Assembly (NCBI GenBank): GCA_951406725.2
Contig: OX597822.1
Location: 6,944,001-7,008,000, forward strand
Source: Octopus vulgaris
Lineage: Eukaryota
Length of the DNA stretch: 64,000 nt
Direction of reading: 5' to 3'
Shown: in pieces, positions 1,752 to 60,932 of the stretch
Numbering within the stretch: the first letter of the stretch is position 1
Layout: the number at the start of each line of letters is the position of its first letter
Made by a program: the position numbers and the translations under genes
Notes under the pieces: generated by a model
Seen by the model: the letters and a program-made list of their open reading frames with translations, nothing else
The model's database searches: none
What the model was told of the DNA's origin: nothing

Positions 1752-1905
1752 GTCTTTGCCTTTTTTTTTCCGTGTCCCTTTCTGTAGAAGAGCGTAGGCA
1801 CGAAACGTAAAATACATTTTCTATTCCTGAGCCTTATACTAATACATCTGTTTGTCTTGTGCACCGCCTGTCTTCGTCTTTTGTGTTTTTTCGTAAACTC
1901 TCCCT
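1752..1905 (+). mobile_element. Short PLE-terminus-like element between (TA)n tracts, with hammerhead-like motif
   Basis: Bounded by (TA)n on both sides. Its 3' part resembles reverse-oriented pieces at 14741-14800 and 47190-47260. Confidence 0.55.
1778..1813 (+). ncRNA. Minimal hammerhead-like motif (core CUGUAGA, A6U)
   Basis: ttt-CTGTAGA-a-gagc gtag gcac-GAAAC-GTA-aaa. Stem II has one mismatch. Confidence 0.5.
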
Positions 1906-3173
1906 ATATATATATATATATATATATATATATATATATATATATATATATATATATATATATATATATACCAGAGGGAGGCGAAAATCGGCCCCGAAGG
2001 GGGTTATTGAGTACAGTTGATGTTTCTCCGCATCACCGGTGTTAATTAATAGCGTGTATTCCAAGGCAAACGCATGCGTAGACAAAATTAGTCGCCACCG
2101 ATAAATAGGTAAAACAATGAATAAAGAATCAATACAATCGGGCAGTGTTCCCAAAATTGCGCCGGTTCAATGAAACTGTATAACCTCAGAATCCGTAACA
2201 AATTAAAGAACCATCTACGTTTTATACTGTATGTAAAGACAATGCGAAAGCAAATTTACTATGTCATTGTTGCGGAGATAATACCTCTTACGGGCGTGCT
2301 GTGTTTGTTTGTCTGTGGACGAATAACACCATTAACATGTATTTTTGTGATATATTTACACTAAGTATGATACGTAGATAGCTATTGTAACTTGATACTG
2401 CCTCTGTTGCCTAAAACAGGTGTCCATTTCAACGGACGACTATTTGCAACATTGTTTCATATATCGCTGTCTACAAATTACATCTATGTATGCGCTGCCC
2501 GGTCCAGTATTTTAATATACAACCTTGAACATGACCCACATACCGTAGCCAATTAGCCACACGCATTCAGTCGCACACATACCTTCTCTTTAAAATTTAT
2601 ATGATGTGTCCCAAAACGATATGATGGTTATAGCTATAGCAGATCGATTATCAGGATACTCCACCAGGGTAGACCTGGGGCTAAATAATGAAATGCAAGA
2701 ACGTCATTACCAACAATAATCATATAACATATTTATTTTGTAATACACAGAAAAAGCAACAGGTAACGCTACATCAATATTGTACATCGATCGTCAGAAT
2801 TTTCTATGCACAACAACGGGGAAAATAACACCGAACAATATAACCGACAGCAACAATAACGGCATGAATGACGCTTACATAATCTTTATTCTGTAAAGCT
2901 GCATCGATCTCGTGCTGTCTTTTCAAATGTATTTACATTCGAAAAGCAAATTTTCATGAACGTAATCGGAATGCATAACACATTAGTTTTATGCAGCTGT
3001 CATTATATTATGTCAATCTTAAATACAAAAACGCGCAGCGACCGCAGCGACGGCAGAAAGAACAGCACTGATGAGAAAAATAACAAATTGACTCGTAATA
3101 TTATATTGAAATATAATCGCAAGGCACAAGTTATGAGGAACATAACTTACTTCCATAATAGAAGCGTCTATGT

Positions 3174-3509
3174 AAAGACATGGGTATGGAAGATTACATA
3201 AGAGATAAATAATTCAGGAGTCAGAATAGTGAGGTGTGGCAAATTGTTCAGAGCATAGCAGGGGTTGATTTCCAGAAAGTTTTTGAGAGTGACTACGTCC
3301 ACACATTCTGAAAAGTTTAGCCATAATTTGGTCAGATGACCAAAGACATGGGTATGGAAGATTACATAAGAGATGAATAATTCAGGAGTCAGAATAGTGA
3401 GGTGTGGCAAATTGTTCAGAGCATAGCAGGGGTTGATTTCCAGAAAGTTTTTGAGAGTGACTACGTCCACACATTCTGAAAAGTTTAGCCATAATTTGGT
3501 CAGATGACC
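3174..3509. repeat. Head-to-tail 168-bp tandem duplication
   Basis: aaagacatgggtatggaag...cagatgacc occurs at 3174-3341 and 3342-3509, with one visible substitution. Confidence 0.95.
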
Positions 3510-4399
3510 AACGTTAGTCAAACGCAACATTTTCAGAAACGAATTTTACAGATTCCCAGCCATATCATTGTACTAAATATAACCAAACCGGACTCCATTA
3601 GAATAGGGACATTTCAAGAATACGATGCTATTTTCCTCCATGGTGCTTAGATCATAACCAAAGTCTTCACATATGTGGCATTCATATATTGGTTAAATAC
3701 GAATGGCCTAGATTTGAATTCCCCAAATGGCAAGGGGTTTTATTTAAAAATTTGCTTTCGGTTCAAAATAAATATAGGTAACACGCGTTTCGTTTAACTT
3801 ACATTTTCGTTAAATCAGTGTTTTGGTTTACGTTGAGATGAAAAGTGATCTTATTTCCCGTCTGCCATGGAGATTTTCAGAAATATTAGTTCCGAGTTTA
3901 ATTTCTATAGCAAAACATTTACCTGTGTTATGTCCTAGTCTCGGATGTATTAATTTGTTGAAAGTTTCTAAAAAAAAAACAAAAGAAAAGAAAAACCATT
4001 TTAACAGACACGGTAATTGGGTAAAGAGAATGTTATATCTTGTGTCGTCTCATTGTTTCCAAAATAAACGTATTTAACAAAGAAAGTTATTGATAAAATT
4101 GGAAAATTTATATAAATTTGAAAATTGAATTCAGAATTACCTTGAGGTGCATATTATTTGGCGAACACTGACACATTGTTGCCCCGAAGAATATACTTAG
4201 TACCCAAATGAATAAATAGCTCAGCGACAATGATAACCCCTTCCATTTGCTGCAGTATATTCGTGAAATATTTACCGTACTTGAATAAAATTTTTAACAA
4301 AGCTGGGTAACAACAACGTAATGATCCAACGAACTGCCCACGAACTATACACGAACCAACGAACGATATTTCAACAAAATACCAAAACCACACCTTACG

Positions 4400-6050
4400 A
4401 CTTCCAGGGATAAACGCTTACTCTCTCTTTCTTTATTTTGGCGCTGCGGCCATTCACGCAGTGGGGACAGTACAAGGACAGAGAGAACAGCATAGTGGGG
4501 ACAAAAAACTTAAAGTGAATGAAAATGATAAAGATCTTATATAATAATGAAAATGAAATGGCTGGCTGCATGAGCCCCACTCTCATGCGGTACCATTTGA
4601 ACGTTTAAACGTACAGTTTATAATCGTCTTTTTTCTTTTGTTTTTTTCCCATTATTATCGTTATTTTTCCTTTTAAAAAAAAATGAAACAATTTTACTTG
4701 CTTTTTTAATATCTAATGAATGGCTGTAGTTCCTTTAAGTCTACCATCAAACTCCTCCACAACTCCTGGTGGATCAATGCCTCTTCCACACATTTCTTGT
4801 AGCCTGTGATATCTCTCCTTATCGACTACAATAGCCTTCACATTTTCCGAATAAATATCTGTGGGTAACTCACCCTTATAATGGATTATAATTTCATTAT
4901 TTTTCTCTCGGTTTCTGTGCTCTTAGCTTATGTTACAACATTCCAACTGTGCTTCTTCGCCTTTCTTCCTTGTTTTCCTTTCCCTTGCTCTACTCTTGAT
5001 ACCTTCTTTCTGTCCTTAGCCTCCTCCATTTTCGATAGTGTCTCTTTATCACCCTCGTGCTGTGGTTCACCTAAATCTTTCGCCTCCACTGGTACAGGCA
5101 GTGTCCTTGCTGCAGTCCCCTCCTTCTCAAACTCTTTCTCTACTGCCTTAACCACTTATTCTTTACTTTTTATGCTTCTCTGGCGGAGAGATTACTCTAT
5201 CACTTCTTTTTCGCTTTTTTGACCACTGTGAACTTCTGCTCTGCTCCTGCCGTCTCCTTCACATCGTCGTGCACCACTTGGTCGAAGCTCTCCTGCTCCT
5301 CAAGCTGTTCCATCTGATGTTCCCTTTCTCTCCTGGGGCACCTCGCCTTAATATGACCTTTCTCTCCCTATAGGTAGCCTTACATCATCGGGCAGAATTA
5401 TTTCCTTTGCAATCCTGTTTACATCTTCCAAACTTGCTTGTATGGCCATCTCTATGCCTTACCCCGTCAATTCTTGGTTCTCATCACAATAAGTATCTTG
5501 GCTTCTTCTTCCATGTTAAACATTATGGCTGCCATCAGGCTTTTTTTTTTATTTCTGGGGGTACTTTACCACCTCTCACCCTGGGAACACGCTTACCACA
5601 GTACATCGGCAATAGTGCCCATCCTTCCGTTCTCATGGCCGCGGTGGAGTGCTTTATCGCTTCGTTTTCCGTCGCGAAACGTGACATACTTCCTTCCTCT
5701 TGTGATAAACATTGTTAGCTTCTTGATCTCCTTAAACACTCCTAAATACCTTCAATAATTTCTATTTCAACTTTTGATAACTTTAGTGCTTTATATGGTA
5801 CGGTTCTTTTCGTTACACTGTTTGTGAGTTCCTCCGGTGGCGTTAATTTTAACGTGTTCCCCTCCTTTGTTAACAGTTTATTTTCATATTCCTTCAGATT
5901 CCTCAGCTCAAGCTTCACCTCACGAACCTCCAATGCTTCAACGTCCATTCCTCTGCCAGTTGCCGCCGCACAACGGTGGCTTCCCGCTGGCACTTGTTCC
6001 ATCTTTCCCACAAATGGGATGAAAACAAACACAATTCAACAACAACAGTA
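4400..6050 (-). mobile_element. Decayed Gag/ORF1-like retroelement segment with degenerate zinc knuckle
   Basis: Minus strand near 5334-5380 reads GYL*GEKGHIKARCP, a CCHC remnant. It is followed by a Glu/Lys-rich tail (ORF 4928-5155). Many stops. Confidence 0.6.
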
Positions 6051-59661: not shown

Positions 59662-59947
59662 AACAATTGCAGCGAGGAAGGTGTTTATATGCCATTTAGG
59701 AAACACACAAAATCCGTTAGATTCACTTCAACATTTAAATTTAATTTGCCAAAATATTTTCGTCGATTTGAGAGCGCGACCTGTTACTGACAAAATTCCG
59801 GGCTGCACAGAATTTTTTCAGTGAACAAGTCGCGGTCTCAAAGCGACGAAAATATTTTGACAAATTAAATTTAAATGTTGAAGTGAATGTAACGGTTTTT
59901 GTGTGTTTCTTAAATGGCATATAAACATCTTCCTCGCTGCAATTGTT
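59662..59947. repeat. Fold-back with ~137-bp arms and 11-nt loop (inverted PLE-type terminus)
   Basis: 59662-59798 pairs with 59810-59947. Loop is cgggctgcaca. Confidence 0.92.
59814..59864 (+). ncRNA. Minimal hammerhead with G3-C8 core (GUGAACA)
   Basis: tttttca-GTGAACA-a-gtcgc ggtctcaaa gcgac-GAAA ATAT TT-tgacaaa. The opposite arm has stem I tttgtca and core GTAACA. Confidence 0.65.
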
Positions 59948-60619
59948 TTCGTTCCAGCACACGATTTCAGATCAGGTCACTTGCTATGCAAGTACATCTC
60001 AGTAATTTATTTTTATAATTGCAAAATTGCTTTTTTTAAAAAAAAATGTCAGCGTTAGTATGGATTGTGATATTCTTCAAGAGAATACACATAACAGCAG
60101 AACTTCAGAATATAAACGGAAGATCAGTACTGATACAGAAACCCTTTCACAGATATATGCACTCGCATCTACATAAACGAAGACTATGATGAGTTAATAG
60201 CCAATGTTAGATTTAAAACAAAATGATAACAACGTATACACTTGGATATAATCTCCAGAAAACATGCTGTGGCATAAAATCAATTTTCTTCCTGGAAAAG
60301 TTTTCTGCTGTATCAGCTTTATAGTGTAAAACTATATTCAAATGCATTTCAGTTTAAGATAGCCCGTACTTTAACATTAAGTCTAAATTTTGCCGTTCAA
60401 TGTTTCGTTTTTTTTCTTGTTTAATACGGTGGTGGAGGCCAATTTATCTACGACTTGTTCCAAATAGAACGACAAAGAAAATGCTTCCTTACAGGTTCCT
60501 ACTCGTAGCTAGATTTATTCAGTCAACTGATATAACGCTGTCTCCTGCCCATGTGGGTACTTTTAGCAGAGATTCTTCAATTGCAAGTATTTCGAAGGTT
60601 TTGTAAAGCGTGATAGGTA

Positions 60620-60770
60620 TTGGTTTCCGTGAGGCATTCAACACTATTGTGCAAAATCTCCCTTTACTAAATAGAGATCCCAAAATGAACGACATCCTGA
60701 AAACACGCAAACTCATCAAGTGCAAAAAGCAACGCAAATCGCCAAAGAGACTGCTAATAAAACAGTTATC
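60620..60770 (+). mobile_element. PLE linker-region fragment
   Basis: EAFNTIVQNLPLLNRDPKMNDILKTRKLIKCKKQRKSPKRLL is homologous to 32482-32607. Confidence 0.8.
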
Positions 60771-60901
60771 TCTCTTGTCCACAACAATAATAATAATAAC
60801 AATAACCAGTTACCTTCTCTTCACTCGTAAATATCATCACACACAGCATGAACAAAAATTTCTTCTTCAGAAAATACATATTGAAATAAGTAAACCATAA
60901 T

Positions 60902-60932
60902 ATCATGAATAGCGAAAGCGAAACCGGTCGAT
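60902..60932 (+). ncRNA. Ultra-minimal hammerhead with A3-U8 core (AUGAAUA)
   Basis: atc-ATGAATA-gc gaaa gc-GAAA CCGG TC-gat, about 130 nt downstream of a PLE fragment on the same strand. Confidence 0.55.

Follow-up and report, generated by a model that had tools for sequence, protein, structure and literature searches.

Minimal hammerhead motifs with different base pairs at core positions 3 and 8 in repeats related to Penelope-like elements of Octopus vulgaris

Introduction

The window analysed here is a 64,000-nt stretch of the Octopus vulgaris genome (contig OX597822.1, positions 6,944,001 to 7,008,000 of the forward strand). It holds eight minimal hammerhead ribozyme motifs in repeats that we relate to Penelope-like elements (PLEs). 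In the active hammerhead conformation, C3 and G8 pair with each other. In the window, the residues at these two positions differ between repeat families, and our question is what this variation means for the ribozyme.

Type I minimal hammerheads of Penelope elements include the U3-A8 families of Cercyon in Schistosoma mansoni, a species with about 1,300 hits for this form (Cervera and De la Pena 2014, PMC4209133). The principle of 3:8 covariation is already in print for this pair in that paper. Its alignment of 56 motifs has CUGA cores with two U3-A8 and one U3-G8 members, and shows no G3-C8, A3-U8, C4 or U6 and no cephalopod. Natural hammerhead variants reviewed earlier include U3-A8, a viroid U4C, a U-U at the base of stem II, and a position-6 change with low activity, A6C, in a phage ribozyme (Perreault et al. 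2011, PMC3088659). The text of that work presents variants as rare and names no A6U, G3-C8 or A3-U8. In a Penelope hammerhead studied in the laboratory, C3G or G8C alone abolishes cleavage, and some activity returns when both changes are combined; the RNA is cut only if the element's protein is present (PMC11167929).

Results

Hammerhead motifs in the window

All eight hammerhead motifs claimed by a first-pass annotation were found in the window sequence. The sites are correct, although most of the numbers given for them mark stem I edges and not core starts. The motifs at 17938 and 20683 belong to the two arms of a single inverted insertion; the series therefore comprises seven families, not eight, which we labelled A to G (Table 1).

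Table 1 Features of the window related to the hammerhead families
Feature	Position	Strand	Description
Family A minimal hammerhead	1779..1812	+	Core CUGUAGA 1782-1788 (C3-G8, A6U)
Family B nested inverted repeats	17841-20822		460 nt at 100% and 467 nt at 97%; together the B insertion
Family B minimal hammerhead	17938..17980	-	Canonical core CUGAAGA, C3 at 17976; inverted arm paired with 20683
Family B intron within terminal repeat	19468..20673	+	Ends 13 nt before C3
Family B minimal hammerhead	20683..20725	+	Core CUGAAGA 20687-20693; palindrome ACAAUUGU
Family C minimal hammerhead	23591..23635	-	Core CCGAAGA 23630-23624 (C3-G8, U4C)
Family C Penelope-like open reading frame (ORF)	24130..26280	-	Reverse transcriptase (RT), CX4CX2C linker, GIY-YIG; 5'-truncated
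Family D coding fragment (linker and GIY-YIG)	32449..33060	+	~640 nt upstream of the D hammerhead
Family D minimal hammerhead	33692..33733	+	Family core UUGAUAA (U3-A8); this copy UUGAUGA, position 3 at 33697, G at 33702
Family E minimal hammerhead	34330..34364	+	Core CCGACGA 34334-34340 (C3-G8, U4C)
Family F insertion	59662..60005	.	~210-nt unit as head-to-head inverted pair; ~57-nt tail on one arm only
Family F minimal hammerhead	59818..59860	+	Core GUGAACA 59821-59827 (G3-C8); 5-bp stem II; palindrome AAUAUU
Family G coding remnant	60631..60756	+	60% identity to the family D protein
Family G minimal hammerhead	60902..60932	+	Core AUGAAUA 60905-60911 (A3-U8); 2-bp stem II; palindrome ACCGGU

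Every site has a stem I of 3-5 bp, a stem II, GAAA, a palindrome from A15.1 and NUH. The type I order (stem I, 7-nt core, stem II, GAAA, NUH) and the stem III palindrome from A15.1 to U16.1 are common to all seven families. The G10.1-C11.1 pair at the base of stem II occurs in A, D, E, F, and G; family B has U-A and family C a U-U mismatch. The motifs lie ~85-190 nt upstream of the 3' end of the element, and most of these ends are at a (TA)n tract.

We defined a strict scaffold by stem I, G5, A9, stem II, GAAA, the palindrome, and NUH, leaving positions 3, 4, 6, 7, and 8 free. It recovers 7/8 sites in the window, while 200 local dinucleotide shuffles averaged 0.03 hits and never gave more than 1. 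The site at 1782 is missed because of a private stem II mismatch in that copy. A looser descriptor gives 7 additional window matches beyond the eight sites.

Core sequences of the families across the genome

For families A, B, C, D, E, and G, the genome was queried with flanks without the core, and the core was then read from 30 loci each. These loci were the best-scoring of 352-2314 first-look candidates; the tallies therefore favour close relatives. Only family B has the consensus core CUGANGA. The other six differ from it at 3/8, 4, or 6, and are therefore classed as variants and not as consensus members.

Family A: The core is CUGUAGA in 25/30 loci. The motif has an additional A after A9 and the stem III palindrome ACGU. 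The host element is non-coding, has ~250 nt and ends at (TA)n near 1900. Among 23 copies from the blind sample described below (73-90% identity to the query), U6 and G5 are invariant, positions 3, 4, 8, and 9 are held in 22, and all four letters occur at position 7. This is a hammerhead conservation profile with one invariant base changed. Extrapolated from the blind sample, the family has perhaps 50,000 copies. The pyrimidine tract followed by UAG was considered as a splice acceptor that would explain A6U; we set this idea aside because sister subfamilies retain U6 without the AG.

Family B: The core is CUGAAGA in 28/30 loci, and the cut in the 20683 motif is predicted after 20721. Intron-bearing copies stand beside many exactly spliced retrocopies of ~170 nt, often head-to-head (L182-L208; window 19457-20686). 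The splice donor is GAAAGT in 5/6 of the long copies seen, the window copy included, and GTAAGT in L183 only. The intron of D. virilis Penelope also ends just before stem I (PMC4209133).

Family C: All 30 loci have CCGAAGA. Here the query was the upstream flank, and, unlike in the other families, the window's own copy was not among the returned loci. The cut in that copy is predicted after 23596. Its frame has 716 codons with matches to RVT_1 (E = 3e-6, just under the cut-off) and GIY-YIG (E = 4e-5). At least 40 copies show no difference over 170 nt, and the family is also found as tandem units of 4271 nt (e.g., G000:C1 38876619-38885330). Judged from these sequences, family C is a very young element and is probably active. 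Its older relatives L334 and L266 have the canonical CUGAAGA, so U4C in family C is recent.

Family D: The first-pass annotation had proposed U3-G8 from the window copy. The family core is UUGAUAA (26/30 loci); UUGAUGA occurs in 1/30, the window copy itself, and in two loci the truncation falls within the core. Position 33702 is A in the contigs of three of four outside runs, and the fourth is without cover there. U3-G8 is thus rejected as a family state. As G8 is confined to the window copy and position 33702 reads A in those three runs, the U-G combination is decay of U3-A8. Hence, the window carries all four Watson-Crick pairs at 3:8.

Family E: The core is CCGACGA in 26/30 loci. The host element is non-coding and has ~240 nt.

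Family F: The core is GUGAACA in 43/54 arms. As this query contained the core, pattern counts were added. The exact G3-C8 pattern has 1284 matches in the genome. With 3 and 8 free there are 1291 matches, and among the first 100 of these, G3-C8 occurs 94 times and C3-G8 not at all. Stem I has 7 bp in typical copies. The inverted arm of the F element holds a ninth copy at 59782-59787(-), which is damaged and has lost one core base.

Family G: The core is AUGAAUA in 24/30 loci. For the F and G cores (59821-59827 and 60905-60911), no differing letter occurs among the rows listed for four contig sets, a weak result given uneven cover and two further rows outside the listing.

Positions 3 and 8 thus form a Watson-Crick pair in 7/7 window families. 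The core-free searches gave the variant core in the majority of loci for A, C, D, E, and G, and the pattern counts agree for F; the variant cores are family states and not decay of single copies. The expectation that positions 3 and 8 always pair held for C-G, G-C, and A-U, whereas U-G proved to be a mutation of U3-A8 in the window copy.

Host elements and lineage history

In families C, D, and G, the motif stands directly behind an RT/GIY-YIG coding sequence or its remnant (D and G by tblastn). Neptune clade PLEs are described with an RT, a CX2-5CXXC linker, a C-terminal GIY-YIG, insertion into microsatellites and tandem or inverted copies (PMC8557442). Families C, D, and G share the RT, linker, GIY-YIG, microsatellite ends, and tandem or inverted copies with that clade, whereas A, B, E, and F are without a linked ORF. 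The linker is CX4CX2C in family C and is also present in the D frame, and element ends carry (TA)n. The RT, cysteine linker, C-terminal GIY-YIG, and microsatellite insertion fit a Neptune-type assignment of C, D, and G, which is made from these features and not from a tree with named references. The terminal-repeat location follows from coding linkage in C, D, and G and is suggested by structural hallmarks in B and F; no parent was found for A and E. Families A, B, E, and F are likely non-coding Penelope derivatives. An NCBIfam search brought no useful addition.

A further Neptune-type family (L337, L342, and others) is represented by many intact 781-aa frames. Its hammerhead is U3-A8, with a weak stem I of 3-4 A-U bp. 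A midpoint-rooted tree was made from 23 of the 44 linker-endonuclease segments after near-duplicates and short pieces had been dropped. Family C (C3-G8) is set apart at 100/100 from a clade with U3-A8 in family D, the 781-aa family, and one more lineage. Family G (A3-U8) lies within this U3-A8 clade as the sister group of D; the support for this placement (91/91) does not reach the starred threshold. The first-pass idea that the variants sit in separate PLE lineages is borne out in part: C, D, and G are tied to distinct Neptune-type proteins, but D and G belong to one clade.

The inverted pair with a one-sided tail in family F resembles known Penelope insertions (PMC8557442). L365 and L366 are palindromic segments of ~3.6 kb that are 97-98% alike, lie 55 Mb apart on C1, and contain F pairs in both arms each. 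An apparent intron-bearing F copy (L359) was rejected, as it is a truncated F copy inserted in another repeat. In the window, the 3' part of F plus its tail (59910-60005) can be read as an ATG-initiated short frame of about 31 codons, which is possibly the start of a missing parent ORF.

Blind sample and family census

The first-pass annotation had suggested a search with a relaxed descriptor. We applied the strict scaffold, with 3 and 8 free, to a blind sample of 120 evenly spaced 10-kb stretches (1.2 Mb). It gave 43 matches, of which 38 are Watson-Crick at 3:8 (30 C-G, 7 U-A, 1 G-C), 1 is G-U, and 4 are unpaired. Five shuffles of the sample gave 2, 1, 0, 0, and 0 matches (0.6 versus 43). Extrapolation to the 2.8-Gb assembly of 227 contigs leads to about 100,000 motifs. 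The core CUGANGA occurs in 6/43, U4C in eleven, and CUGU(A/G/U)GA in twelve. A CUGANGA-only search would indeed miss 37/43 of these motifs, but mostly not through 3:8 swaps; judging from the U4C and CUGU(A/G/U)GA counts, positions 4 and 6 cause more misses.

When all loci were scanned more loosely and the matches grouped by their non-core sequence, 14 families with at least two members emerged; 47 singletons, several of them unpaired at 3:8, were left out. A U3-A8 group joined by eye and the 781-aa Neptune-type family were added, giving a census of 16. At 3:8, nine of these families are C-G, five U-A, one A-U, one G-C, and none unpaired. Shuffling position 8 among the 16 families gives P = 2e-6 with kinship ignored; since the families are related, this value overstates the case. 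At L257 (971-1333(-) and 9405(+)), L252, and L260, there are tandem repeats of ~360 nt with a U3-A8 hammerhead, UUGAAAA, which are retrozyme-like.

Predicted dimers and copy ends

In folding predictions, the window copies of B, C, and D adopt a double-hammerhead layout as homodimers of lowest energy. Other folds are predicted for A, E, and F, and family G would form stems II and III without stem I. Among insertions of families A, E, and F, no copy starts at the predicted cut (0/52, 0/29, and 0/11, together 0/92), and 84/92 extend upstream of it. These 84 copies therefore came from uncut RNA.

Other repeats in the window

A retrotransposon without long terminal repeats (non-LTR) and with RVT_1 and zf-RVT lies at 44600-46446(-), with a 97% identical inverted fragment at 55116-55494; we take it to be HERO-like from its appearance. 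PIF1 helicase fragments at 15426-16490(-) probably derive from a Helitron. Broken frames occur at 26769-28280(-) and 35274-35744(+), where Pfam gives a weak DUF5354 match only; they resemble hAT-type and Tc1/mariner transposases. A (TATG)n satellite of 2.7 kb at 49400-52140 is the source of spurious mir-297 matches in Rfam.

Discussion

The 3:8 pair is fixed per family, and we propose that selection acts on the parent elements for slow, assisted cleavage, and that copies decay neutrally after insertion; we give this reading a probability of roughly 60%. The parent elements would keep the pair for the active-site fold of an RNA that is probably a slow self-cleaver helped by dimer formation or protein. 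Double hammerheads may arise when transcripts of tandem parents pair through the palindromes of stem III. Scattered copies would be reverse transcripts of uncut RNA, and their neutral decay would account for single-copy states such as U3-G8. The simplest history would be that C-G changed to U-A, U-A then changed to A-U, and G-C arose separately in F, which is outside the tree.

A number of observations count against this proposal. Three of the seven predicted dimers (A, E, and F) lack the double-hammerhead layout and that of G is incomplete, and the copy ends of A, E, and F point to uncut templates. In the reconstituted system, insertion in vitro is independent of cleavage, and no RNA reads end at the cut (PMC11167929). 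A6U compensates for no other change and poses the greatest difficulty for catalysis, and it is fixed in the commonest family, A; U4C, likewise non-compensatory, is found in two window families. Both U4C and A6C lower hammerhead activity (PMC3088659). Since D and G share one protein clade, as few as about three independent double changes suffice for the whole pattern. The parents are also incomplete: four paired-copy regions searched contained no F-linked ORF; the upstream sequence shared among copies of A and E ends at ~100-130 nt without a parent; and no coding parent of B was found in the sequence searched, which ended short of its long upstream region. The Rfam model Hammerhead_1 (RF00163) matches only one of the four motifs scanned closely (B, D, F, and G). 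The D motif scores 21.1 bits (E = 0.005), below the gathering threshold of 34 bits, and B, F, and G scanned singly gave no match at E up to 10. In a whole-window Rfam scan, there was no hammerhead among the 150 of 336 matches listed, which are dominated by matches of miRNA models to microsatellites.

Some of these points would suit a fold that is kept for recognition by the Penelope protein or as an aid to folding or splicing, with the chemistry no longer needed, at any rate where A6U or U4C is the family state. The absence of copies starting at the cut, the fixed A6U of family A, the normal insertion of cleavage-dead mutants in vitro, and the cutting of RNA only with protein (PMC11167929) all speak for it. 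Against it, pairing of positions 3 and 8 belongs to the catalytically active conformation, as the rescue data of the same source also indicate, and G5, A9, G12-A14, and H17 are retained although binding alone does not obviously need them. We regard this explanation as unlikely. Slightly less credit goes to frozen accidents, in which a few masters changed their core, lost or weakened activity and were then amplified, so that the pairing would reflect two or three lucky inherited events. The small number of events required by the tree, the dominance of short non-coding copies in A, E, and F, and the success of Naiad elements without canonical hammerheads (PMC8557442) agree with such a history. 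However, an unpaired 3:8 combination is the majority state in 0/16 families, G3-C8 and A3-U8 each require two matching transversions, and U3-A8 persists across proteins that are only ~55% identical, among them those of the family whose 781-aa frames are intact.

It is very improbable that the motifs are mere chance resemblances in a genome rich in AT and in repeats. Loose descriptors do yield chance matches, as seen in the 47 singletons and the 7 extra matches in the window. This idea is already largely refuted by the shuffles in the window (7 versus 0.03), the blind sample (43 versus 0.6), and the fixed position of the motifs at element ends behind GIY-YIG frames.

The motifs share several properties with the metazoan Penelope hammerheads of PMC4209133, namely the short stem I, the optional base after A9, the palindromic stem III, the terminal-repeat location, the predicted action as dimers, and U3-A8 covariation. 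They differ from that set by having four Watson-Crick pairs together with fixed U4C and A6U families in one genome. Small dimer-forming Penelope hammerheads that have a short palindromic stem III and cleave as dimers were also described by Lunse, Weinberg and Breaker (RNA Biol 14:1499), as summarized in a review (PMC6765202). PAc Poseidon of Anolis carolinensis (Frangieh et al. 2024, PMC11167929) likewise has a terminal-repeat hammerhead, an uncut template and a one-sided tail. Its G3-C8 form is a laboratory double mutant, whereas here G3-C8 is a natural family state with >1,200 near-perfect motifs. Non-LTR retrozymes are short tandem hammerhead monomers; the window copies instead are single or inverted pairs. 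Our literature search, which did not extend to Lunse et al. (2017), found no natural G3-C8, A3-U8, or A6U Penelope families and only engineered G3-C8 (PMC3884650, PMC11167929).

These families bear on the question of whether Penelope hammerheads are selected to cut. Such hammerheads cleave slowly in vitro, and insertion can do without cleavage in the one system that has been reconstituted. That a pair of the active conformation shows complete Watson-Crick covariation is good comparative evidence for selection on the active fold. The genome offers candidate natural ribozymes with G3-C8, A3-U8, U4C, and A6U, and for several of them the matching protein as well; hammerhead censuses based on CUGANGA undercount such genomes (6/43 canonical). 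More tentatively, and in our view with the odds against it, assistance by the protein may widen the active site so that all four 3:8 pairs, U4C, and A6U are functional, and about 6/7 of the ~100,000 motifs would be invisible to a CUGANGA search. If this were true, the octopus genome would amount to a mutational scan, made by nature, of the hammerhead core.

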